A program made the translations under genes and the position numbers. Of a stretch of 64,000 nt of DNA, positions 26,178 to 52,879 are shown piece after piece (within the stretch, counting starts at the first letter, position 1; every line of letters begins with the position of its first letter). The notes beneath the pieces are model-generated. The model saw only the letters and a program-made list of their open reading frames with translations. It had not been told where the DNA came from and searched no databases. The stretch comes from Hemiscyllium ocellatum (Eukaryota). Location of the stretch: assembly GCF_020745735.1 (NCBI RefSeq), contig NC_083419.1:73734096-73798095 (forward strand), written 5' to 3'.

Positions 26178-27975
26178 TAGAACATATAGAACATAGAACA
26201 TAGAAGGATACAGCGCAGTACCGGCCCTTCGGCCCTCGATGTTGCGCCGACCGAATCCTACCTAACCTATACTAGCCCAATAACTTCCAAATGCCTATCC
26301 AATGCCCGCTTAAATGACCATAAAGAAGAAGAGTTCACCACTGATACGGGCAGGGCATTCCATGAACTCACAACCCGCTGTGTGAAGAATCTACCCCTAA
26401 CATCTGTCCTATACCTACCACCCCTTAATTTAAAGCTATGTCCCCTAGTAACACCTGACTCCATTAGCGGTAAAAGGTTCTTAGTATCTACCCTATCTAA
26501 ACCCCTAATCATCTTATACACTTCTATCAGATCTCCCCTAAACCTTCTCTTCTCCAATGAGAACAGCCCCAAGTGCCTCAGCCTTTCCTCATAAGATTTT
26601 CCTACCATTCCAGGCAACATCCTGGTAAACCTCCTCTGCACTCGTTCTAAAGCTTCCACATCCTTCCTATAGTATGGCGACCAAAACTGCACACAATACT
26701 CCAGATGAGGCCTCACCAGAGTCTTATACAACTGCAACATGACCTCAGGACTCCGGAACTCAATTCCTCTGCCAATAAAGCCCAGTACACCATATGCCTT
26801 CCTCACAGCACTATTTACCTGGGTGGCAACTTTCAGAGATCTGTGTACATGGACACCAAGATCCCTCTGCTCATCCACACTACCAAGTAGCCTACCATTA
26901 GCCCAGTAATCCATCATCTTGTTATTCCTACCAAAGTGAACGACTTCGCACTTAGCTACATTGAATTCCATTTGCCACATTTCCGCCCAGCTCTGCAACT
27001 TATCTATATCCCGCTGTAACCTACCACTTCCTTCCTCACTATCCACAACTCCACCGACTTTTGTGTCATCCGCAAACTTGCTTACCCAGCTTTCAAGTCC
27101 TTCCTCTAGATCATTTATAAAGATAACAAAAAGCAATGGTCCCAAAACAGATCCTTGTGGTACACCGCTAGTAACTGCGCTCCAAGATGAACATAATCCA
27201 TCAACTACTACCCTCTGTCTCCTTCCAGCCAGCCAATTCCTAATCCAAACCTCTAATGTATCCTCAATGCCATACCTCCGAAGTTTTAGCATTAGCCTAC
27301 CATGGGGAACCTTATCGAACGCCTTACTAAAATCCATATACACAACATCTACTGCTTTACCCTCGTCCACTTCCTTAGTCACCTTCTCAAAGAACTCAAT
27401 AAGGTTTGTGAGGCACGACCTGCCCTTCACAAAACCATGCTGGCTATCCCTGATCACGTTATTCCTACCCAGATGTTCATAAATCTTATCCCTTACCATT
27501 CTCTCTAAGACTTTGCCCACCACTGAAGTCAGACTCACTGGCCTATAGTTACTAGGGCTATCCCTACTCCCTTTCTTGAACAATGGGACCACATTCGCTA
27601 TCCTCCAGTCCTCTGGTACTATTCCCGTTGACAATGACGACATAAAAATCCAGGCCAATGACTCTGCTATCTCCTCCCTAGCTTCCCATAGGATCCTGGG
27701 GTAAATGCCATCAGGCCCAGGAGACTTATCTATATTCATCCTTTCCAATATTCCCAAAACCTCTTCCCTGCATATTTCCAGGGCATCCATTCTAATTATT
27801 TGTGATTCCATATTCACATCAGCAACAGTGTCCTGTTCCTGAGTGAATACTGATGAAAAGTACTGATTTAATGTCTCTCCAATCTCCTCCGCCTCCACAC
27901 ACAACTTCCCACTACTATCCTTGACTGGACCGATACCTACCCTAGTCATTCTTTTATTCTTGACATACCTATAGA
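26178..27975 (-). mobile_element. Young 5'-truncated CR1-type LINE
   Basis: (ATGTTCT)n-type tail at 26178-26205, 3' hairpin GGGCCGAAGGGCC, uninterrupted RT reading frame; TAGA shared at both junctions. Confidence 0.95.
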
Positions 27976-27997
27976 GTATTTCTATGGCATTTACCAC
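26267..27997 (-). CDS. CR1 LINE ORF2 reverse transcriptase, open 576-aa frame lacking the APE domain
   Basis: KSPGPDGI, NYRPVSLTS, YMDFSKAFDKVPH, GVPQGSVLGPLLF, FADD motifs; the first ~7 codons come from flanking ZNF sequence. Confidence 0.85.
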   Translation of the reverse strand: MVNAIEILYRYVKNKRMTRVGIGPVKDSSGKLCVEAEEIGETLNQYFSSVFTQEQDTVADVNMESQIIRMDALEICREEVLGILERMNIDKSPGPDGIYPRILWEAREEIAESLAWIFMSSLSTGIVPEDWRIANVVPLFKKGSRDSPSNYRPVSLTSVVGKVLERMVRDKIYEHLGRNNVIRDSQHGFVKGRSCLTNLIEFFEKVTKEVDEGKAVDVVYMDFSKAFDKVPHGRLMLKLRRYGIEDTLEVWIRNWLAGRRQRVVVDGLCSSWSAVTSGVPQGSVLGPLLFVIFINDLEEGLESWVSKFADDTKVGGVVDSEEGSGRLQRDIDKLQSWAEMWQMEFNVAKCEVVHFGRNNKMMDYWANGRLLGSVDEQRDLGVHVHRSLKVATQVNSAVRKAYGVLGFIGRGIEFRSPEVMLQLYKTLVRPHLEYCVQFWSPYYRKDVEALERVQRRFTRMLPGMVGKSYEERLRHLGLFSLEKRRFRGDLIEVYKMIRGLDRVDTKNLLPLMESGVTRGHSFKLRGGRYRTDVRGRFFTQRVVSSWNALPVSVVNSSSLWSFKRALDRHLEVIGLV

Positions 27998-28479
27998 AGT
28001 CCGTCATTTACAACATTATTTTATCTGTGTGAACTCAATGGTCTGCCTGCAATTGAGAAGACTGAGTGAACCTCTTCCCACACTTGGAGCAGATGAATGG
28101 CGTTTCCTCAATGTGAGTACGTTGATGAATTTCCAGTTGAGGTGGGGATTTGAATCCCTCTTCACAGTTCTCATATCTTCATACTTTCTCCCCAGCGTGA
28201 CTGTAATTATGTCTTGACAGTTCAGATTATTTCATGCACGCACCGGACAGGTACACTGTTCCTCCTCACTGTGATTGGTGTCTTCTTCCAAGTTCAGAAT
28301 CCAACAATATTCCGATCATTAAAAAAAACAATCTTTCCAATTCTAATATGATACCTAGCTCTATTTCCTGACCACAGACTGACCCCTTCACATAATCTGT
28401 GAAACTAATTAAAGAGAAGGAAAGTGAGTGAGAGAAGACCACCATCTGACTGAATGGCCATCACTGAGACCTGGCAACT

Positions 28480-31085: not shown

Positions 31086-31552
31086 TAAACAACAGCTATT
31101 TACAACTCTGAACCTCATTTCTCTTTAATATCTTTTCTTCTATATCCAACTCTATACTGATCGAATGAACCCCAATTAAAATTTGCAACATATTAATTTT
31201 CAAAACCAGACAGCGGCTGCCGTCTCCAGTGACTATCTTCCTGTTTGTAGATCTCCCTGGGTCGTCTTCGGAATTCTGCTGCAAGGGTGAAAAAAGTACC
31301 TTTGATTGAAAGTGTTTTGAATGGCACTCTCTCTCTACCTCTCTCTCGCTAACTCTCAAAATGCTGACGGTTGATACCCTAAATATTGGATCAACTCACT
31401 GGTTCGAAGTTGTCAACATTGTACAATTCAAATTCCGTTGGGTTTTAGTATATTGGGGCATAATTGAAACTGCCTGGTTGAATTCAATTGGTGGCCAAAC
31501 TGCTGAGGTATCTAGATTACAACCAAATGTTAAATATTTTCTATTTTCCAGT

Positions 31553-34500
31553 ACACTGTCAGAGGGTCAGTACTGAGGGAGTGCCACACTGTCAGAGGGT
31601 AAGTAATGCGGGAGTGCTGCGCTGACAGAGGGTCAGTACTGAGGGAGTGCTGCTCTGGTCGGGGGTTGAGTTCTGAGTGAGCGGTGCATTCTCAGAGGGT
31701 TAGAACTGAGGGAGCGCTACACTGTAAGAATGTCTGAACTAAAGTGTGTTGCACTGTCAGAGAGCTGCACTGTCAAAGGGTCAGTACTGAGGGTGCACCG
31801 CACTGCTGCACGGTGGGTATGTGGACAGTGCCACATTTTCAGAGGGTCAGCAATGAGGGATCACTGCGCTGTCAGAGGGTCAGTACTGAGGGAACGCTGC
31901 ACAGTCGGAGGGCCAGTACCAAGGCAACACCACACTGTCAGAGGGTCAGGACTGAGAAAATGCTGTTGTGTCAGAGCATCAATTCTGAGGAAGTGCTGCA
32001 GTGTCACAGGATCAGTACTGAGGGAGTGCTGCACTGTCAGAGGTGAGTGCTGACGGAGGGCTGCACTGTCAGAGGGTCAGTACTAAGGGAGTGCTGCACT
32101 GTCAGAGGGTCAGTATTGAGGGTGTGCTGCACTGTTAGAGGATCAGTACTGAGGGTGTGCTGCGCTGTCAGAGGGTCAGTACTGAGGGAGTGCTGCAATG
32201 CCAGATAGTCAGCACTGACGGATCACTGCGCAGTCAGAAGGTCAGTACTGAGGGAGTGCTGCACTGTCAGAGGTGAGTACTGACGGAGGGCTGCACTGTA
32301 AGAGGGTCAGTACTAAGTGAGTGCTGCACTGTCAGAGGGTCAGTATTGAGGGCGTGCTGCACTGTTAGAGGATCAGTACTGAGGGTGTGCTGCACTGTCA
32401 GGGGGTCAGAACTGAGGGACTGCACACTGTGAAGAGAGCACTGAGGGAGCAATGTACTGTCATGTGGTCAGTAATGATGGAGTGCTGCACTGTCAGAGGT
32501 TCAATACTGAGGGAATGCTGCACTGTCAGAGGGTCAGTACTAAGGGAGCGCTGCACTGATAAAGGGTCAGTACTGAGGGAGTACTGCACTGTCAGAGTGT
32601 GAGTACTGAGGGAGTGCTGCACTTTCAGGGGGTCAACACAGACGGCGTGATGAACTGTCGGAGGGTCAGTGCTGAGGGAGCACTTCACTGTCAGAGTGTC
32701 AATAGTGAGCAAGTGCTTCACTGTCAGAGTGTCAGTACTGAGGGAGTGCTACTCTCTGAGAGAATCAGTACTGACGGAGTGATGTACTGTGAGAGAGCAC
32801 TGAGGGAGCAGTGCACTATCAGCGGGTCAGTACTGAGGGAGTGCTGCACTGTCAGACAGTCAGTCCTGAGAAAATGTTGTTGTGTCAAAGCATAATTTCT
32901 CAGGGAGTGCTGCAGTGTCAATGGATCAGTACTGAGGGAGCGCCACACTGTCAGAGGGTCAGTACTGCGGGAGTGCTGCACTGTCAGAGGGTCAGTACTG
33001 AGGGGTCACTGCGCTGTCAGAGGGTCAGTACGGAGGGAGTGCTGCACTGTCAGAGGATGAGTACTGACGGAATGCTGCATTGTCAGAAGGTCAGTACTGA
33101 GGGAGTGCTGCACTGTCAGAGGGTCAGTACTGAGGGAGTGCTGCACTGTCAGAAGGTCAGTACTGAGGGAGTGCTGCACTGTCATAGTGTCACCAATGAG
33201 ACGGTGCTGCACTGTTAGAGGGTCAGTGTTGATGGAGAGCTGCACTGTCAAAGTGTCAGTACTAAGGGAGTGCTGCACTGTTAGAGGATCAGTATGGAGG
33301 GTGTGCTGCAATGTCATGGGTCAGTACTGAGGGAGTGCTGCACTGTCAGAGGGTCAGTACTGAGGGTGTGCTGCACTGTCAGAGGGTCAGTACCGATTGA
33401 ATGTTGCACTGTCAGAGGGTCAGTATGAGGTGAGTGCTGCACTGTCAGAGGGTCAGTATGGGGGGGTGTGCTGCACTGTCAGAGGGTCAGTACTGGGGGA
33501 GTGCTGCACTGTCAGTGGTCCGTACTGAGGGATTGCTGAATTGCCAGAGAGTCAATCCTGATGGGTCATCGCACTGTCGGACAGACAGTAGTCAGGGAAT
33601 GCTGCATTACCAAAGTGTCAGTACGGACGGAGCACCATACTATCCGAGATTCAGTCCAGACGGAGTACTACACTGTGAAAGAGTCAGTACTGAGGGAGTG
33701 CTACACTGGAAGAGCACTGAAGGATCACTGTACTGTCAGAGAGTCTGTAATGAGGGAGAACTGCACTGTCACAGAGTCTGTAATGAGGGAGAGCTGCACT
33801 GTCAGATGGTGAGTACTGAGGGAGTGCTGCATTATCAGAGGTCAATACTGAAGGAGCGCTGCACTGTCATAGGGTCAGTGCAGAGGGAGTGCTAAACTGT
33901 GAAGAGAGCACTGAGGGAGCACTACACTGTAAGTGGGACATTGCTGAGGGAGTGCTGCACAATCAGAGCGTCAGTACAGGGGGAATTCTACACTGTGAGT
34001 GAGTCAGCACTGAGGGATTTCTACCCTGTGAGAGAGCACTGAGGGAGCAGTGCACTGTCGGAGGGTCAGTACCGAGGGAGCGCTGCACTGTCAGAGGGTC
34101 AGTACTAAGGGAGTCTGCAATGTCAGAGGATCAGTATGGAGGGTGTACTGCGCTGTCAGTTGGTCACTACTGAGGGATTGCTGAATTGCCGGATAGTCAG
34201 TACTGATAGATCACCGCACTGTCGGACAGACAGTAGTCAGGGAATGCCGCATTACCAGAGTGTCAGTATGGGCTGAGCACCACACTGCCAGAGGTTTCAG
34301 TCCAGACGGAGTGTTAGGCTGTGAAATAGTCTGTACTGAGGGAGTGCTACAATGTGAGAGAGCACTGAGGGATCACTGTACGGACAGAGGGTCTGTAATG
34401 AGGAGAACAGCATTGTCAGAGAGTCTGGAATGAGGGAGAGCTGCACTGTCAGAGGATCAGTACTGAGGGAGTGCTGCATTATCAGAGGTGAGTACTAAAG

Positions 34501-37500
34501 GAGTGCTGCACTGTCAGAGGGTCAGTGCAGAGGGAGTGCTACACTGTGAAGACAGAAATGAGGGAGAACTACACTGTAAGTAGGACAGTTACTGAGGGAG
34601 TGCTGCACTATCAGAGGGTCAGAACTGAAGGATTGTTACACTGTGAGAGAGTCAGCACTGAGGGCGTGCTACACTGTAAGAGAGCACTGAGGGAGCATTG
34701 CAATGTCGCAGGGTCAGTACTGAGGGAGAGCTGCACTGTTGGAGGGTAAGTACTGAGGGAGTGCTGCACTGTCAAAGGGTCAGTACTGAGGGAGTGATAC
34801 ACTGTCAAAGGGTCAGCACTGAGGCAGCGCCGCACTGTCAGAGAGTCATTACGTCGGGATTGCTGCACTGTGAGAGGGTCAGTATGGAGGGTGTGCTCGA
34901 CTGTTAGAGTATCAGTACTGAGGGAGTGCTGCACTATCAGAGGGTCAGTACGGAGGGAGTGGTACACTATGAGCCAGTCAGCACTGACGGAATGTTACAC
35001 TGTGTGGGAGCACTGAGGAAGAAGGGCGCTGTCGGAGGGTCAGTACTGAGGGAGTGCTGCACTGTCAGAGGGTCAGCACTGAGGTTTTGCAGCACTGTCA
35101 GGGAGTCAGCACTGAGGAAGCGCCGCACTGTCAGAGAATCATTACGTCGGGAGTGCTGCATTGTTAATGACTCAGTACTGAGGGAGTGCCGCACTATCAG
35201 AGGGTCAGTACTGAGGGAGTGCTGCACTGTCAGAGAGTCAGTACTGAGTGTGTGCATCATTGTCAGCGAGTCAGTGCTGAGGGAATGCTGCACTGTCAGA
35301 GTGTCAGTACTGAGTGAGTGCATCACTGTCAGAGGGTCAGGAGTGAAGGAGTGCATCACTGTCAAAAGGTCAGTACTGAGTGTGTGCATCATTGTCAAAG
35401 GGTCAGTATGGAGAGAGTGCAGCATTGTCGGAGGGTCAGGACAGAGGAATTGCTGTGCATTGAGAGGGTCCAAAATGATGAAGTGCACATTCTCTGAGCA
35501 TCATTAAAAGTGGCTAGCCATGCTGTGAGACGGTTACTACTGAGGGAGCGCTGCACTGTGAAAAGGTTAGAACTAAGGGAGCACCGCGCAGTGAGTGGGT
35601 CAGTACCGAGGGATCAATGCGCTGTGAGGGGTTCAGTACCGAGGGAGCACCACGCTACGTGTCGACAGTACTGCGAGAGTGCTACATTGCTAAACGGTCA
35701 GGACAAAGGCATTGCTGGACTATCACAGATGCAGGATCGAGGCAGTGCAGCACGGTCAGAGTGTCAGTACCGAGGGAGTGCTGCCCTGTCAGGGCATGTG
35801 TATTGAGGGAGCATCTCATTGTCAGGGGGTCAGGACTGAGCATGTGCTGCACTGTCAGTGGGTCAGTACTGAGGGAGTGCTACACTGTGAGAGTCAGTAC
35901 TGAGGGAGTGATACACTGTCGGAGAGCACTGAGGGAGTGGTGCATTATCAGAGGGTCAGTACTGAGGGAGTGCTGCACTGTCAAGCAGTCAGAACTGAGA
36001 AAATGCTGTTGTGTGGAAGCATGATTTCCGAGGGAGTGCTGCAGTGTCAAAGGATCAGTACTGAGGGAGTGTCACACTGTCAGAGGTTCAGTAATATGGG
36101 AGTGCTGCACTGTCAGAGCGTCAGCATTGAGGGGTCACTGTGCTGTCAGAGGGTCAGTACTGAGGGAGTGCTGCACTGTCAGAGGGTCAGTATGGGGGAG
36201 TGCTGCACTGTCAGAGGGTCAGTACTGAAGGAGTGCTGCACTATCAGAAGGTCAATACTGAGGGAGTGCTGCGCTGTCAGAAGGTCAGTATGGAGGGTGT
36301 GCTGCACTGTCAGAGGCTCAGTACTGAGGGATTGCAGAACTGTCAGATAGTCAGTCTTGATGGATCACCACACTGTCGGACAGACAGTAGTCACGGAATG
36401 CTGCATTACCAGAGTGTCAGTAAGGACGGAGCACCACAATGTCAGAGGTTCAGTCCAGACTGAGTGCTACACTGTGAAAGAGTCAGTACTGAGGGAGTGC
36501 TACGCTGGGAAAGCACTGAGAGAGTGCTGAACTGTCAGAGGGTCAGCATTGAGGGGTCACTGTGCTGTCTGAGGGTCAGTATTGAGGGAGTGCTGCAGTA
36601 TCAGAGGTCAGTACTAAGGGAGCATTGCACTGTAAGTGGGTCTGTAATGAGGGAGTGCTGCACTATCAGAGTGTCAGAACTGAAGGAGTGTTACACTGTG
36701 AGAGAGTCAGCACTGAGGGAGTGCTATACTGTGAGAGAGCACTGAGGGAGCAGTGCACTGTCGCAGGGTCAGTACTGAGGGTGTGCTGCACTGTCAGAGG
36801 GTCAGTACTGAGGGAGTGCTGCACTATCAGAGGGTCAATACTGAGGGAGTGGTACACTGACAAAGAGTCAGCACTGAGGCAGCGCCGCACTGTCAGAGAG
36901 TCATTACGTCGGGATTGCTTCACTGTGAGAGGGTCAGTATGGAGGGTGTGCTGCACTGTTAGAGTATCAGTACTAAGGGAGTGCTGCACTATCAGAGTGT
37001 CAGTATGGAGGGAGTGGTACACTAAGAGCCATTCAGCACTGACGGAATGCTACACTGTGAGGGAGCACTGAGGAAGAAGTGCGCTGTCGGAGGGTCAGTA
37101 CTGAGGGAGTGCTGCACTGTCAGAGGGTCAGCACTGAGGAAGCGCCGCACTGTCAGAGAGTCATTACATCGGGAGTGCTGCACTGTCAAATACTCAGTAC
37201 TGAGGAAGTGCCGCACTATCAGAGGGTCAATACTGAGGGAGCGCTGCACTGTCAGAATGTCAGTACTGAGGGAGTGCTGCACTGTCAGACGGTCAGTATG
37301 GGGGTATGCTGCACTGTCAGAGGGTCAGTACTGAGGGAGTGTTGCACTATTAGAAGGTCAATACTGAGGGAGTGCTGCACTGACAGAGTGTCAGTATGGA
37401 GGGTGTGCTGCACTGTCAGAGGCTCAGTACTGAGGGAGGTCTGCACTGTCAGAGGGTCAGCACTGAGGAAGCGCCGCACTGTCAGAGAGTCATTACGTCG

Positions 37501-40155
37501 GGAGTGCTGCACTGTCAAAGACTCAGTACTGAGGGAGTGCCGCACTATCAGAGGGTCAGTACTGAGGGAGCGCTGCACTGTCAGAGGGTCAGTACTGAGG
37601 GAGTGCTGCACTGTCAGACGGTCAGTATGGGGGTATGCTGCACTGTCAGAGGGTCAGTACTGAGGGAGTGCTGCACTATTAGAAGGTCAATACTGAGGGA
37701 GTGCTGCGCTGTCAGATTGTCAGTATGGAGGGTGTGCTGCACTGTCAGAGGCTCAGTACTGAGGGAGGGCTGCACTGTCAGAGGGACAGTACTGAGGGAT
37801 TGCTAAATTGCCAGATAGTCAGTCCTGATGGATCACCGCATTGTCGGACAGACAGTAGTGAGGAAATGATGCATTATCAGAGTGTCAGTATGGACGGAGC
37901 ACCACAATGTCAGAGGTTCAGTCCAGACTGAGTGCTACACTGTGAAAGAGTCAGTACTGAGGGAGTGCTACACTGGGAGAGCACTGAGGGATCTCTGCAC
38001 TGTCATAGAGTCTGTAATGAGGGAGTGCTGCACTGTCAGAAGGTCAGTACTGAGGGAGTGCTGCATCATCAGAGGTCAGTACCGAGGGATCAATGCGCTG
38101 TGAGGGGTTCAGTACTGAGGGAGCACCAAGCTATGTGACGGACAGTCAGTACATTGCTAAATGGTCAGGACAAAGGCATTGTTGGACTATCAGCGATGCA
38201 GGATCGAGGCAGTGCAGCACGGTCAGAATGTCAGTACCAAGGGAGTGCTGCCCTGACAGGGCATGTGTATTGAGTGAGCAGCATATTGTCAGAGGATCAG
38301 GACTGAGCATGAGCTGCACTGTCAGTGGGTCAGTACTGAGGGAGTGCTACACTGTCAGAGAGCACTGAGGGAGCAGTGCACTATCAGAGGGTCATTACTG
38401 AGGGAGTGCTGCATTGTCAGGCAGTCAGAACTGAGAAAATGCTGTTGTGTGGAAGCATCATTTCCGAGGGAGTGCTGCAGTGACGAACAATCAGTACTGA
38501 GGGAGTGCCACACTGTCAGATTTTCAGTACTGTGGGAGTGCTGCACTGTCAGAGGGTCAGCATTAAGGTGCCATTGTGCTGTCTGAGGGTCAGTATTGAG
38601 GGAATGCTGCATTATCATCGATCAGTACTAAGGGAGCACTGCACTGTAAGTGGGTCTGTAATGAGGGAGTGCTGCATTGTCAGAGTGTCATTACTGAGGG
38701 AGTACTACACTGTGAGAGAGTCAACACTGAGGGAGATCTACAATGTGAAAAGAGCACTGAGGGAGCACTAGAATGTCAGAGGATCAGTGCTGAGTGTGTG
38801 CTGCACTGTAAGAGGGTCAGTACTGAGAAAATGACGTTGTGTCAGAGCATCATTTCTGAGGGAGTGCTGTAATGTCAAAGGATCAGTACTGCGGGAGTGC
38901 TGCAATGTCAGAGAGTGAGAACTGTGGGATCACTGCGCTGTCAGAGGGTCAGTACTGAGGGAGTGCTGCACTGTCAGAGGGTCAGTACTGTGGGAGTGCT
39001 GCAATGTCAGAGAGTCAGCACTGTGGGATCACTTCGCTGTCAGAGGGTCAGTACTAAGGGTGTGCTGCACTCTCAGTGGGTGATTATGGGGGGCGTGCTG
39101 CACTGTCAGAGGGTCAGTGCTGAGGGAGTGCTGCACTGTCAGAGGGTCAATGCTGATGGAATGCAGCACTGTCAGAGGATCAGTATGGAGGGTGTGCTGC
39201 ACTGTTAGAGGATCAGTACTGAGGGTGTGCTGCACTGTCCGAGGATCAGTACTGAGGGAGTGCTGCACTGTCAGAGGGTAAGCATGCGGGTGTGCTGCAC
39301 TGTCAGAGGGTTAGTACTGTGGAGTGCTGCACTGTCAGAGGGTCAATGCTGAGGGAGTGCTGCACTTTCAGTGGGTCAGTATGGGGTTGCGCTGCACTGT
39401 CAGAGGGTCAGTGTGGGGGGTGCGCTGCACTGTCAGAGTGCCAGTACTGAGGGAGTGCTGCACTGTCAGAGGGTCAATACTGAGAGAGAGCTGCATCATC
39501 AGAGGTCAGTACTGAGGGAGTGCTGCACTGTCAGAGGGTCAATACTGAGGGAGAGCTGCATCATCAGAGGTCAGTACTGAGGGAGTGCTGCACTGTCAGA
39601 GGGTCAGTACTGAGAGAGTGCTGCATCATCAGAGGTCAGTACTGAGGGAGTGCTGCACTGTCAGAGGGTCAGTACTGAGGGAGAGCTGCACTGTCAGAGG
39701 GTCAGTAATGAGAGAGTGCTGCACTGTCAGAGGGTCAGTACTACGGGAGTGCTGCACTGTCGGGTCTGCACTGAAGGATCATTGCGCTGTCAGAGGGTCA
39801 GTACTTAGGGAGTGCTACACTGTCAGATGGTGAGTAGTGAGGGTGTGCTGCACTGTCAGACGGTCAGTACTGAGGGAGTGCGGCACTCTCAGAGGGTCAG
39901 TACTGAGGGAGTGCTGCTCTGTTAAGGGGTCTGTAATGAGGGATTGCCGCAATGTCAGAGGTTCAATATGGGGGCTGTGCTGCACTGTCAGAGGGTCATT
40001 ACTGAGGGAATGCTGCATTGTTGGAAGTCAGTTCTGATAGAGTGGCACACTGTTAGAAGGTCATAACTGAGGGAGCAGTGCACTGTCAGTGCAACAGTCT
40101 GGGGGAAACCTGCATTGTAAAAGAGTCAGTACTGATTGAATGCCACACTATCAGA
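31553..40155. repeat. 33-bp tandem minisatellite/satellite, ~8.6 kb (~260 units)
   Basis: Consensus GTCAGTACTGAGGGAGTGCTGCACTGTCAGAGG, with diverged variants and multi-unit blocks that recur. Confidence 0.95.
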
Positions 40156-47328: not shown

Positions 47329-47949
47329 TGTTATAAATAAGAAACGTAGTTTTCTGCAGGCGATATAGAAATGTAATTGTTGTAAGTGCGAGTGGAGTAT
47401 AATTTCTGTAGATAGGTGAGGTGTGAGACATTATACAAACGGTCATGGAATTCTTGTAACATGTAGTATACTTAAGGCTGACACTTTAATGAATAAAGGG
47501 GGTCTTTTAAATAAGTAGTTTTAAAGAAAATAGTTTTAAGCTAGGAAATAACTATGGAGTATTGTAGCTGACCACAAAAGAAGAAGTAAGGGTATTTTCA
47601 CAATAAAGCTTATAGTAGCAGAACAAGGAAAGCAGACATCCAAGGACACGGACAGCCTGGTACATAGATAAGGAAAGAGAAAAACAAGTGAAGTAATTAT
47701 CTTCAGGTTAGTCTCAAGTAAAGGCCAAATAAGGGAATGAAATGAAATAAATGATTATGATAGGGTACGAATCGGGAAAGGGGATGTGAGCCTGCAACAC
47801 ACAAACTGTATAAAAATGATTGCATAACTGATATCTTTGCACTTTTTGCCAGGCTAGCTGGATACCCGGACTTGCAAGTTCTTAATAAATTTACCTTGTT
47901 TCCATGGCTTTGTCTCCGGCTGATTTATAAGTGAGTTTTGTTTCTAACA
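47329..47949 (+). mobile_element. ERV LTR1
   Basis: TGTTATAAA...TTTCTAACA ends, TATAAAA 47809, AATAAA 47884, followed by a PBS. Confidence 0.75.
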
Positions 47950-47952
47950 ATT

Positions 47953-47971
47953 TGGGGGCCTCGACCGGGAT
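47953..47971 (+). other. Primer binding site, tRNA-Pro-like
   Basis: TGGGGGCCTCGACCGGGAT versus canonical Pro PBS TGGGGGCTCGTCCGGGAT. Confidence 0.85.
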
Positions 47972-48448
47972 ACAAAACTCCGACCACTCAACACTCTTGG
48001 GATGAGGTGGGGAGGTGCACCTCGCCGATGTCGGCGATCTCCTACACACTTGTTTGCCACCTGCGGTTTGGGTGAGTAGGATCCGGACGGGCAGCCCTGG
48101 AAACAAGGAGGGGTTTTGCAGTGACAATAAGAGCTGTGGGGTTTTGCAGTGACCAAAAGAGCTGCAGATATTGCCGCACAGGTTAGGAGCCAGCTGCGAC
48201 CAGGTAACTCTGTACACAGACCAAGGTAAGAAAATTCACCTTTAAGTATTACCTTGGTGGTCAGGATAACCTTAAATGGTCGGGAACGTATGAAAAGTAT
48301 GGGGAATTGGCAAAATCTGAATTAAAGCATATGTTAATGGACAACAGCCCGTGTCAGATGGGCTAGTCGGCGAAGGGCTACTGAGAGTGCACTTCGTAAC
48401 TAACTTATGGCCAGACGTCTAGAAAAATAGTCAAAAGTTAGAAGACTT

Positions 48449-48598
48449 NNNNNNNNNNNNNNNNNNNNNNNNNNNNNNNNNNNNNNNNNNNNNNNNNNNN
48501 NNNNNNNNNNNNNNNNNNNNNNNNNNNNNNNNNNNNNNNNNNNNNNNNNNNNNNNNNNNNNNNNNNNNNNNNNNNNNNNNNNNNNNNNNNNNNNNNNN
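48449..48598. other. Assembly gap (150 N)
   Basis: N run inside the ERV leader. Confidence 1.
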
Positions 48599-48789
48599 AA
48601 ATTTTAACCCTTTGTGATCTGGTTTGAATGCACATTTGTTTGTTGATGATTGAATGTTAACAGTTGAAGTCTCAAAAAGCATATAATTGGTCAAATTAAT
48701 CAGACGAGTACGGTGTCTAGTCAGGACACTGAAGGGGGTGTGGAAGAAGGTGACACAGGACCTCATTAAGATTAATTAAATTAACAACA

Positions 48790-49865
48790 ATGGGACGCAC
48801 GGGGAATTGCCTGTGTAACGATGATCTGTAAATAATGTTAAAGTGGAATATATTTCGCCCGATAGTCTTTGGGGAGAATGTTGGGTAATTTGGAACACCA
48901 CTCCAGCACGCGGGAGAAAGATAAGACTACAATGATAAAATATTGTTGTTTCGTTTGGACTAGAGAAAGTATTAAGGCGTCTGTTTTTTTTGGCCAAGTA
49001 TGGGTCCAATGTGGATTGGCTGTATCAAGATTTTAATATATATGTCAATCGAAAAGAACCTACAATCAAGAAGAGTCCGATTATGCGGCTTGTTGGATAG
49101 GGAGCGCAGGAGTAAAATTATGTTGCATGAATACGGAGGACTCATGGAAAGAACAAAAGAAAAGAATGAAAAAGTGAAGCCACAATGGGATCCCTTAATG
49201 TGTTTGCCGCTATCGTATACTACTCCCCAGAAAGAGCCTACAGCTCCCGAAGTAGAACCGAGTCCAGACATAGAAAGGGGAATGGACTCTGAACTAAAAG
49301 ATGCAGAACCTAGGGGGCTCACAATCACTCGAGCCACCACACGTAAAGGGAGGGCAGAGATAATGGAAAATGTAAAATTCTGTCCCTTACGTGAGGTTCC
49401 GATTGGGGAAGGTACAATCGGATATATAAATGCTCCCTTAACTGGCAGTGAAGTTCGGGTCTTTAAAAAGGAAATGAAAAGTTTAACATAAATTCTCAAA
49501 TGTTGATCCTCAATTGGGAAAATAATAACAGAGAAGATACGGAGTCAATGCGAGATCTCCGAGAAATGGTAATATTAGGAATTAAAGAGGCGACACCAAG
49601 ATCACAAAACTTTGTTAAGGCCTTTGAAGTATGGCAAGAGAAGGATGAAACCCCTTCTGCATTTCTTCAAAGGCTCAAATAGGCCACAAGGAAGTATTCG
49701 GGAATGGATCCCGATAATCAGGTTGCACAGGGACTCTTAAAGGTCCAATGTTTAACCAAATCATGGCCAGACATTCAAAAGAAACTAGAGAAATTAGAGG
49801 GATGGAGTGAAAAACCAATAGAAGAACTGCTACGTGACGCACAGATCGTGTATGTAAAAAGGGAA
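48790..49865 (+). pseudogene. gag: Class I (gamma/epsilon-like) ERV gag, copy 1, frameshifted
   Basis: MG start; MIKYCCFVW (MA-like); PTAP; PLREVP...GYINAPLTGSEVR; QEKDETPSAFLQRL (major-homology-region-like); KSWPDIQKKLEK. Confidence 0.85.
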
Positions 49866-49870
49866 GGCTG

Positions 49871-50305
49871 GCAGCTTTACAGAATCGAATGGCTTGAGAC
49901 TATCTTTTGGCCGAAAATGGGGGAACCGGTGCTCTGATTGGTAAGGAATGCTGCATCCCAGACACTTATTCCAGAGTGGAAGAAATAGTAAAGAAAAAGA
50001 TAAACAATATGAACTCCGAAAAGAAGAAGGACGGGATGGGGATGGGGTAACTGGAGATTGACCGGATGGGAAAATGGTTAGTGAATTTAGGCATTTATGT
50101 GCTAGTAATAATTGTAGGTTTGTTGATAGAGTTTAATATGTTAAAATGGATAATGAATAAGCTGGTTTATGTGCTAGTAATAATTGTAGGTTTGTTGATA
50201 GAGTTTAATATGTTAAAATGGATAATGAATAAGCTGGTAATGTCTTTGGAAGGACAACAACCAATCATGGTACAAACTAAAAGGACAGAAATGACTAGAT
50301 TGTGA
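49871..50305 (+). pseudogene. env: ERV env transmembrane-subunit remnant
   Basis: LQNRMA*DYLLAENGG (immunosuppressive-domain-like), GALIGKECC (CX6CC with the first Cys lost), hydrophobic membrane span. Confidence 0.85.
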
Positions 50306-50365
50306 ACATCGGCACAATAGGGTGAAAAGAGGGCAGAAAATAAGATTGCAAAAACAACAAATAGT

Positions 50366-50382
50366 AAAAAAAAATGGGGGAG
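50366..50382 (+). other. Polypurine tract
   Basis: AAAAAAAAATGGGGGAG immediately before the TG of LTR2. Confidence 0.85.
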
Positions 50383-50383
50383 C

Positions 50384-50987
50384 TGTTAGAAATGAGTTAT
50401 AGTGTTGTTTTTGAAGATATAGTAAAAGCATGCAGAAAAGGGGTACAGCAAGAGAACTATTAACTCTGTAGGCAGTTAGCGACTTTTCAGTGTATAATTG
50501 TGGTTAGTAGAATACTAACTTTGGTGTGTAATTACTATAACAAAAAATTCTTTTTGTAAAATGATGCTTTCAACAAAAAGCTGGGATAACCAAAATGCTT
50601 GAGCTTTACACAATGATACAAGTTAATGAAATGTCCTAGGATGGAATGCACCAGCAAAATTGATACAAAATGTTAAATTAGATCTTGACAAAATAAATGT
50701 ATATGTCAGCATTTACAGAAAGGAAGGTTGCCAACCTGGGGAAGGGGGAGGTAATAACGGTGGGGCACAGCTGGGCAGTGGTATGACACAGTAAGAGAGA
50801 TTGGGTAAGTAGGGGTCTGGAAAGATGACCTCACTCAGCTCAAAGGGTATAACTGTACACTAACCTAAGTTCTAAATTGCTCATTTGCTTATGCAATTGA
50901 CACCTTTACTTGCAAGTTCGTAATAAATTGTTCTTGCTTCCATGGCTTTGTCTCCAACTGATTTATAAGTGATTTCTGTTTCTAACA
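50384..50987 (+). mobile_element. ERV LTR2 (604 bp)
   Basis: TGTTAGAAA...TTTCTAACA 9-bp inverted termini, AATAAA 50922, preceded by a PPT and followed by a PBS. Confidence 0.9.
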
Positions 50988-50990
50988 AAT

Positions 50991-51009
50991 TGGGGGCCTT
51001 GTCCGAGAT
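50991..51009 (+). other. Primer binding site, tRNA-Pro-like
   Basis: TGGGGGCCTTGTCCGAGAT. Confidence 0.8.
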
Positions 51010-51098
51010 CCAAAACTCCGACCGCTCGACACTCTTGGGATGACGGTGGAGGTGCACCTCGCCCATCGTCACAAGAGTGTCAAGCGGTCGTGTTTTGG

Positions 51099-51115
51099 AT
51101 CCCGGATGAGCCCCA
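51099..51115 (-). other. Primer binding site, tRNA-Pro-like (inverted element)
   Basis: Minus strand TGGGGCTCATCCGGGAT. Confidence 0.85.
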
Positions 51116-51120
51116 AAATC

Positions 51121-51722
51121 TGTTACAAACAAAATTCAATGAAATTTAGACGAGACCTCCAAAACTGGAAACAAGACAATTTATTATGAACTTGCAAGTA
51201 AGGGCTTCACTTGCATAAGCAAATAATCAAATTAGAGCTTAGGTTAGTGTACGGTTATACCCTTTGAGCTGAGTGAGGTCATCTCTCCAGACTCCTAATT
51301 ACCCAATCTCTCTTATTTTTCCAGACCACTGCCCAGCTGCGCTCCACCCTTATTACTTCCCCCGTCCCCAAGTTGGCAAACTTCCTTTCTGTAAATGCTG
51401 ACACACACATTTATTTGTCAAGATCTGATTTAACATTTTGTACCAATTCTGCTGGTACATTCAATCCTCGGCCATTTCATTACCTTGTATCATTTTGTAC
51501 AGCTCAAGCATTTTGGTTATCCCAGCTTTTTGCTGAAAGCTCAATTTTACAAAAAAAACTTTTTGTTATAGTAATTACACACCAAAGTTAGTATTCTATT
51601 CACCACAATTATACACTGAAAAGTCTTTAAATACCTGCAGGGTTAATAGTTCTCTTGCTGTACCCCTTTTCTGCATGCTTTCTCTATATCTGCAAAAACA
51701 ACACTTTACCCCATTTCTAACA
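51121..51722 (-). mobile_element. ERV LTR3, inverted
   Basis: Colinear reverse complement of LTR2 over U3; termini TGTTAGAAA and TTTGTAACA. Confidence 0.9.
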
Positions 51723-52007
51723 ATTTCAGTACGAGAAGTACAGGGGAATTGGCAACTTTCAAAAAAAAAGAAAATAAAGATCTTTAATTGGCTAGACTAA
51801 TCTAACAAGAAAGGTGTCTAACTGATTCGATCACCCAGCCTTAGACCTGTTGTTAAGAAGGGAACCCCCCACACAGAGATCCGGACCCTGAAGCGGGTGT
51901 GGAAAAAGATAACACCGAACCTCAGAGAGGTTAATTAAAATTATATAAAGAAACAGAAGAGTATTAAAATTGGAAATAAAAATGTCAATTTAAATGCACA
52001 ACAAGAC

Positions 52008-52830
52008 ATGAGACAGATATCTGAAGACTATATCCTAATGAACAGTCCTTTAGGAAAGATGCTAAGATATTGGCAATACAATCCTCGGATGCGAAGAGAA
52101 GACAAAAAACAAATGATAAAATTTTGTTGCTTTGAGTGGACTAAGGAAGGCATGAAAGCCCCAAATGTATTTTGGCCTAAATATGTGTCAGACGAGGATT
52201 GGTTATGTCAAGAATTAAATATATATGTAAATAGGAAACATAACTCCTCCAATAAAGAATCTGAGTACTCCGCCTGTTGGGCAGGGAGCCCGAAAATTCT
52301 AATTCTGAAAAAGTCAGAAATGGAATAAGGCAATGAGGAAACAAAGGATTCCCACTGGGATCCTTTGTCATGTTTACCCCCTCCCGTATATAACAATGAT
52401 AATAATGGCCCATCATTTCCCTCTCCCACAGCACCCCCTCCGGTACAAGAACCTGAAAAAGATCCAGGGGAAGACCTTTCCTTGAGTCCGATTAGAAGGA
52501 GATCAGCAGTAAAAAGAAGGGAAGAGGGGGACTTAAGCGGGGCATCGATACAAATATATCCCCTTAGAGAAGTACCCGTCGGTAATGACGAAATTTGATA
52601 TGTTAATGCAACGCTGACTAGTAGTGAAGTTAGGTTTTTTAAAAGAGAAATTAAAAGTCTGATTGAAGATCCAGTAGGATTGGCAAAACAGTTGGATCAA
52701 CTCCTGGGGTCGAATTTGTATACTTGGTGTGAATTGATGAGTATTATGGGATACTATTTTCAGGGGAAGAAAGGGGTATGATTAGAAGAGCTGCGCTTAG
52801 GGAATGGGAAAAGAGACACCCTGTGCCACG
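52008..52830 (+). pseudogene. gag: Class I ERV gag, copy 2 (MA to N-terminal CA), truncated
   Basis: SPLGKMLRYW...MIKFCCFEW...FWPKY; PPPVY and PTAPP late-domain motifs; YPLREVP...LTSSEVRFFKREIKSL. Confidence 0.85.
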
Positions 52831-52879
52831 AAGGAGTAGGAAAATGAAAGCTTGAGTTTTCAAATAAACCCCTCAGACT

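Follow-up and report, generated by a model that had tools for sequence, protein, structure and literature searches.

The window, the whole 64,000-nucleotide stretch of Hemiscyllium ocellatum DNA that was analysed, contains a composite of broken endogenous retroviruses between positions 47329 and 52838. The composite opens on the left with LTR1 (47329..47949, plus strand), which belongs to subfamily A in U3, R and U5, is 88-93% identical to the A copies L122, L123 and L130 and starts where the TG of A copies lines up. Its U3 gave no alignment to the U3 of the two LTRs further to the right, LTR2 and LTR3. A PBS, an A leader and a broken A gag follow (47950..49866, plus strand, 85-92% identical to the A copies L122, L123 and L131); this piece includes the native hairpin of the copy-1 A leader (48009-48026) and a stretch of Ns (48449-48598). 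The A gag is joined through a 3-base overlap (49864-49866) to the 3' end of a B1 env with its PPT (49864..50383, plus strand), and among 40 scored genome matches the window alone spans this join. A perfect 72-bp tandem duplication is also present in the env remnant (50094-50238, 100% match); contigs of three sequencing runs carry it, and it is much younger than the rest of the locus.

The env piece leads into LTR2 (50384..50987, plus strand), a chimeric 3' LTR with a B1-type U3 up to ~50905, a shared R at 50908-50931 and an A-type U5; no second chimera of this kind was seen among the best 40 scored matches. Next come an A-type PBS and 5' leader (50988..51045, plus strand), assigned by diagnostic columns, and a native 18-nt imperfect hairpin (51046..51063) with a 12-bp palindrome at 51049-51060. 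At 51063/51064 the sequence folds back. It continues on the minus strand with an inverted A-type 5' leader (51064..51098; 9 A, 0 B and 1 other diagnostic columns after the PBS), an inverted PBS with a B-type spacer, which is the site of the A-to-B switch (51099..51120), and LTR3, B1-type throughout, with a U3 sister to that of LTR2 (51121..51722). Three PPT-side bases, AAT on the LTR strand, lie past the TG terminus (51723..51725, minus strand), and a B2 3' leader with a broken gag then runs on the plus strand until it is cut off at 52838 (51726..52838, 85-88% identical to L124-L126 and L132). The rest of the elements, including a right-hand LTR, is absent from the window and from the next 10 kb, and there is no target duplication around the composite. 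Neither of the window's two gag stretches matched a Pfam family. The locus is neutral debris, with no intact coding and no known function.

Elsewhere the window holds an 8.6-kb tandem array (31552-40135, period 33, ~261 copies, 71% matches) and a LINE-type RT frame of 578 aa (26193-28003, PF00078). The LINE-type RT region is 99.4% identical over 1783 bp to an insertion within the ERV copy L126, which indicates that this element was recently active.

Related retroviral pieces number in the hundreds in the 3.98-Gb host genome (423 and 663 first-look candidates). The best 40 of these were scored per search, and the comparison copies used throughout, being best matches, are biased to young copies. 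Natural two-LTR copies encode a gamma-type env (PF00429, TLV_coat, in L122) and an MLV-like integrase tail (PF18697, MLVIN_C, in L125), and their RT is 49-76% identical to bird, snake, catshark and ray proteins. By its env and its integrase C-terminus the family is a class I (gamma-like) endogenous retrovirus; we presume a possible link to the HERV-I-related group and a PBS that is possibly of the tRNA-Pro type. In integrated copies a 4-bp target duplication comes before the initial TG (7 of the 12 pairs listed, with 14 tried). Three subfamilies are involved at the locus: A, the type of LTR1; B1, which supplies the U3 of both arms of the inverted repeat; and B2, which carries gag 2. B2 and B1 have the same U5 lineage and U3s that are only 73-76% alike, and gag 2 with its leader falls in the B2 clade with support of 95/97.

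Several further features of the family were observed. Besides LTR1 and arm 1, 5 of 35 A copies have a PBS one base longer at the column scored. A 29-bp repeat of the subfamily-A leader has grown to more than 40 copies in L015:1800-3150, with 2-9 in other copies. Near-identical proviral copies at different contigs or positions (L002/L003, L009/L010, L059/L060, L068/L070/L071 and L170-L173) suggest segmental duplication or unplaced haplotigs. One B1 provirus (L121/L043, G000:C190:22322200-22330500) continues from its 3' LTR into a PBS and at least 199 bp of leader and is a natural three-LTR-type tandem.

Self-BLAST of the window returned an inverted match over 50384-51722 with 86.2% identity across 1350 columns, made of a left arm of 671 bp and a right arm of 668 bp. 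Arm-against-arm identity is 84-96% in U3 windows and just 32/50 in the U5 window (50933-50978). The preliminary description of this DNA had reported the repeat and had placed its axis on the perfect 12-bp palindrome; the 12-mer does recur in the copy-1 leader, at 48012, its only other occurrence in the window, and the mirror axis can be refined to the native 18-nt hairpin at 51046-51063. The repeat is confirmed as real. A 170-bp contig from run X1 crosses its centre (51017-51186) with 0 differences, and a contig from run X14, which is another sample and study, covers 49808-50062 with 0 differences and bridges the gag/env join at 49866. Among the pieces listed from the sequencing runs no contig bridges the join at 51722, and none of those listed for run X5 (organism B) crosses any join. 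A chimeric fold-back read or collapsed repeats could in principle have produced such a structure in the assembly, the more so in a high-copy family with hundreds of first-look candidates, and run X1 possibly comes from the assembly's own sample. But the arms differ by 14%, with private changes on both sides, which argues against a fold-back read, and with unaltered contigs over the centre and the gag/env join we regard an artefact as extremely improbable.

The arms were compared with other copies to find their origin. In a tree of 44 B1 U3 sequences the two arm U3s are sisters with support of 92/90, which is below the starred level and under 95, for two arms that are both long-branched. Four columns are common to both arms and present in 0 of the 42 other copies. 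Four or more such private shared columns are reached by only 6 of 946 U3 pairs; apart from the two arms, these comprise four 5'/3' LTR pairs and one near-duplicate. Both arms, moreover, carry one mosaic subfamily profile along the whole U3. To judge from the tree and these columns, the arm U3s are sister copies of one subfamily-B1 LTR. In raw distance the arms lie 0.109 apart and each is closer to other copies (0.092 and 0.071); their U3 branch lengths are 0.073 and 0.054, against a median of 0.022 in a comparison set biased to young copies. All pieces of the composite have similar branch lengths, 0.035-0.095. Mutation raised specifically in the inverted repeat found no support, the flanking env and gag pieces being equally long-branched. 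There was also no sign of gene conversion of the inner arm-2 U3, where differences number 30/300 distally and 26/216 proximally with the same subfamily states, a test limited by the fact that all four shared private columns fall within the distal 300 bp of U3.

The sequence before LTR2 is env and PPT continuous with B1 3' LTRs, so LTR2 is a 3' LTR and not a 5' end. Downstream of U3, 35 R-U5-PBS-leader columns separate the subfamilies in a reference of 26 A and 17 B copies. Arm 1 has 30 A, 2 B and 3 other states at these columns, and arm 2 has 25 B up to the PBS, followed by 9 A and 1 other. Arm 1 thus switches from B to A in R and arm 2 in the PBS, and both leaders are A-type. It would seem, on these columns, that a single A patch running through R, U5, PBS and leader and back to the PBS bridges the two B1 U3s. 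The switch points coincide with runs conserved between A and B, in R, in the PBS (50998-51011 in arm-1 coordinates) and in the hairpin, which is one of seven such runs. The preliminary description was right that two subfamilies contribute and that the arms differ in U5 and PBS spelling. Its reading of the arms as two different proviral 5' ends does not survive: the left LTR is a 3' LTR, both leaders are of the A type, and the U3s turn out to be sister copies, the outcome that it had itself set against that reading. Nor do LTR3 and its leader belong with the family that carries gag 2, LTR3 being B1, the flipped leader A and the leader of gag 2 B2.

The patch has no private column in common with LTR1, and their distance of 0.115 is only the fifth of 36 rows; on this comparison LTR1 is no more than a possible donor. 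No A leader was found on the 29 best B-type 5' ends, and no A/B chimeric family that could be a ready source of either arm was found among the best 40 scored of several hundred candidates. The arm chimeras, the gag/env join and the right join were each found in no other copy among those screened, and none of 50 distinct leader palindromes in the sampled loci is mirrored. Other copies broken at the palindrome were not seen among 85 mismatch-tolerant genome matches, a search that recovered the window as control. The exact mirrored-leader pattern had 0 genome matches, a weak result as the pattern is unable to match the window itself. The composite is a one-off: the copies screened contain no other like it.

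In intact A copies the 12-mer lies within an 18-nt imperfect hairpin, and this allows the turn to be placed. At 51061 the window has G, the base natively found downstream in 27 of 35 A copies. A symmetric crossover would need the complementary letter upstream, and none of the 35 A copies and none of 83 other genome matches has it there. The plus strand is therefore native to 51063 and the inverted part begins at 51064. The turn would then lie at the base of the native hairpin and outside the 12-bp palindrome, which fits fold-back priming, though one rare transversion could imitate the signal at 51061. The turn is indeed at the leader palindrome, in that the hairpin at the axis holds it, and the crossover inside the 12-mer that had been proposed is contradicted by the native base at 51061. 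As in known fold-backs, a short interrupted inverted repeat was already present where the junction lies, and the native strand continues to the end of that repeat. The second arm, though, does not copy the first throughout: the U3s and the leaders agree in origin but the U5s and PBS spacers differ, so extra switches are needed.

The palindrome had also been proposed as a dimer-linkage site. Among the A copies, a sample skewed by the search motif, 32 of 35 preserve its hexamer, as do 16 of 20 B copies; a 10-bp core survives unbroken in 31 of the A and 10 of the B copies. In predicted folds of single copies, the openness of the central 4 bases places them in the top 8% (A) and 16% (B) of 4-mers, and the predictions are divided between a tetraloop hairpin and an open loop, the local tetraloop hairpin having a probability >0.5 in only 7/35 A and 4/20 B copies. 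For the copy-1 18-mer the predicted self-duplex is at -34.5 kcal/mol versus -8.8 for the hairpin. A transcript across the centre is predicted to form a long hairpin (-185.6 kcal/mol, z -21). The expected family-wide conservation was borne out, while looping is predicted only as an open centre, with the local hairpin in a minority of copies. The suggested likeness to the HIV-1 DIS applies to the hexamer, which is a DIS variant, and is otherwise loose, the palindrome being longer and nearer in size to MLV SL-A/SL-B. With its core in both subfamilies and possibly looped out in the predictions, the palindrome is a fair dimer-linkage candidate only. A fold-back at a hairpin requires no dimer.

The right end of LTR3 bears on how the inverted arm was joined to what follows. 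In 3' LTRs of the family the G-run of the PPT is followed by three bases, mostly AAT, and then TG; this AAT-TG order is seen in 7 of 10 LTRs classed as having a PPT, and in 1 of the 20 others, an LTR in which a PPT can be recognised by eye. In the window the CA of LTR3 is followed by ATT at 51723-51725, the complement of the PPT-side bases. Matches to 3' LTRs extend over these positions, and a run contig joins 50373 to 51724 in opposite strands. Intact leaders at the join begin with GG (24/26) or AG (2/26), and AT was found in 0/26. The U3 end of LTR3 can be read as unprocessed, keeping the bases that integrase removes, a reading of 2-3 bases in DNA that is 6-9% diverged. The junction had been set exactly at the TG terminus of LTR3; it is near it, but LTR homology reaches 51725, 3 bases beyond. 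That leader resumes after 51722 and enters gag holds true, with a weak resemblance to the copy-1 leader at 48288-48314. The B2 leader resumes 490-988 bases past the hairpin position (26 of 32 rows with measurable distance). The PPT complement and the target leader have a short TTC(C) in common, and this overlap would permit a purely chromosomal jump with nearly the same letters. In reverse transcription, R is the place of the first transfer, the PBS of the second, and the PPT edge is the plus-strand start; plus-strand strong-stop DNA is limited by the PPT edge and the PBS. The B part of arm 2 spans the PPT edge to the PBS and so matches these limits.

The preliminary description had explained the locus by an integrase-type flip, in which provirus B autointegrated and then recombined with element A in the 12-bp palindrome. 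The order of env-LTR, inverted leader-LTR and leader-gag does resemble an inversion circle as drawn in the available text of PMC7197481; such a circle would have sister LTRs, two inverted LTRs from one cDNA agree with the sister U3s (their U5s differ), and the palindrome sits at the axis. Autointegrants are, however, defined in the accessible part of PMC2644782 by a processed U3 end that has lost its terminal bases. Here CA is not joined directly to the target, and the target is not the element's own internal DNA: the LTR is B1, and neither the flipped A leader nor the joined B2 leader is the LTR's own. With the PPT-side bases retained and a leader of another subfamily joined to them, the join is not that of an autointegration. 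The arm on the left is, besides, a 3' LTR, and judging by position 51061 the break did not fall within the 12-mer. This explanation is largely refuted and, as a whole, very unlikely. Integration of the whole composite as one U3-U3 molecule was rejected separately: the sequence to the left of LTR1 is something other than B leader, and no duplication is seen there.

The source of each piece and the place of each join are established by these comparisons, and from them we infer a chain of template switches, independent of integrase, with a U-turn at the hairpin and the likely involvement of an unintegrated cDNA end. A plus-sense strand leaving the B1 3' LTR would have switched in the shared R to an A-type U5-PBS-leader. 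It would then have passed the 18-nt hairpin to 51063, where its 3' end may have folded back and primed inverted synthesis or, in a variant, paired in antiparallel on a second hairpin copy. At the PBS it would have switched to a B1 template spanning exactly the PBS to the PPT cleavage edge. This template may have been plus-strand strong-stop DNA, or else the left end of an unintegrated cDNA, and would have shared its source with LTR2. Finally, the unprocessed end might have reached a B2 leader, at a point ~0.5-1 kb further downstream than the hairpin, either by end-joining or by a jump across 3-4 overlapping bases. The sister U3s, the switches in the conserved R, PBS and hairpin runs, the base at 51061, the unprocessed end, the uniqueness of the composite and the similar branch lengths of all its pieces point this way, and we consider this chain slightly better than an even prospect. 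Against it stand the modest U3 clade with its long branches and closer raw distances to other copies, an A patch with no private column shared with LTR1, the absence of the 51722 join from the contig pieces listed, and four switches among three subfamilies, unparsimonious as a single event, whose order and number are unreadable from one locus.

The main rival has the same switches made wholly on chromosomal templates, by fork stalling/MMBIR or an ODIRA-like fold-back. A three-LTR tandem (B1 env-LTR-PBS-leader-B2 gag) would break in the leader, take an A patch from a nearby A LTR, fold back at the hairpin, copy a B1 LTR from the sister chromatid into the PPT edge and jump forward by microhomology. 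Local templates alone would explain the sister U3s and the plus orientation of gag 2, a natural env-LTR-PBS-leader tandem is present at C190, homology between A and B is simply strongest in R, PBS and hairpin, and short overlaps occur at other joins too, as in the 3 bases at 49864-49866. The left half of the locus, to which this comparison is confined by the cut at 52838, has a chimeric inner LTR, outer and inner LTRs that are unlike and no target duplication, which the available text of PMC1950507 gives as signs of genomic recombination. Yet chance would have to put the exit from the template within ~3-5 bases of where the LTR ends, although U3, PPT and env together offer more than 1 kb; in addition, the commoner PPT spelling demands one extra inserted base, and the A patch is not specifically sister to LTR1. 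We judge this origin possible, though somewhat unlikely.

The inner joins all fall on landmarks of reverse transcription (R, PBS, PPT edge and the palindromic leader hairpin) and the pieces are of similar age, which could also be explained if A and B RNAs had been packaged together and RT had made the U-turn inside the particle, at their dimer-linkage palindrome, followed by integration and trimming by deletion. Palindromic dimer sites do mediate recombination in MLV, as reviewed in the accessible part of PMC5874298. But with two B1 U3s that have different U5s, three A 5' leaders and one B2 leader, the locus needs a larger number of templates than a pair of co-packaged RNAs provides, which argues against this origin. 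Moreover, the near-identical outer LTRs and flanking target duplication required for an origin in reverse transcription, according to the available text of PMC1950507, are not found, and the 50 leader palindromes and 85 pattern matches held no second case. An in-particle origin is accordingly quite unlikely. It is also unlikely, if slightly less so, that the locus preserves a reverse-transcription U-turn in the fuller sense, with priming at a dimer-linkage hairpin, second-strand transfer to the plus strong-stop DNA of another subfamily and capture of an unprocessed end.

As it stands, this is a single decayed rearrangement of little significance, and its value is as a readable record. The joins on R, PBS, PPT edge and leader palindrome point to a U3 overhang of 3 bases in this ERV family and to where its dimer-linkage site may be, and the locus teaches that end processing should be checked before an LTR end joined to internal sequence is called autointegration. 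If the U-turn reading were true, the locus would reveal where an uncharacterised class I retrovirus, probably of cartilaginous fish, has its dimer-linkage site, and would show a route from dimer sites to head-to-head LTR hairpins, which could give double-stranded RNA against two ERV subfamilies. If fold-backs at leader palindromes recur across ERV families, dimer sites would be mappable from genomes alone.

In the open-access literature we found no report of a head-to-head ERV LTR-PBS-leader fold-back, nor of an ERV that combines these features, each of which is known by itself: inversions by fold-back, three-LTR elements of chimeric make-up, and inversion circles. The relatives of the family among class I ERVs of cartilaginous fish, birds and reptiles share the TLV_coat env and the MLVIN_C integrase tail. 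A self-complementary leader motif just past the PBS is also found in MLV (SL-A/SL-B) and HIV-1 (DIS), according to the available text of PMC5874298; the palindrome in the window is nearer to the 10 and 16 nt of SL-A and SL-B, whereas HIV-1 exposes a 6-mer only, and dimerisation is here only predicted. Fold-back inverted duplications primed at short interrupted inverted repeats have been modelled by ODIRA, nick fold-back and MMBIR/FoSTeS (PMC4689423, in the part available). At the present locus, by contrast, a retroviral leader hairpin serves as the repeat, paralogous subfamilies alternate along the arms, and a reverse-transcription boundary lies at the far end. The left half, with its chimeric inner LTR between env-PPT and PBS-leader, resembles the three-LTR complexes of Sabot and Schulman 2007 (PMC1950507), which in the accessible text are head-to-tail; the locus adds an inverted LTR and a fold-back. 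The inversion circles of autointegration, already described (PMC7197481 and PMC7215508, in the parts available), share with it a 3' LTR, an inverted 5' part with its U3 end on internal sequence and sister LTRs. As far as the available texts of PMC2644782 and PMC7197481 describe them, they differ from the locus in that here the U3 end would be unprocessed, the joined leader comes from another subfamily, the U5 end is not directly joined to the inverted segment and the whole is chromosomal.
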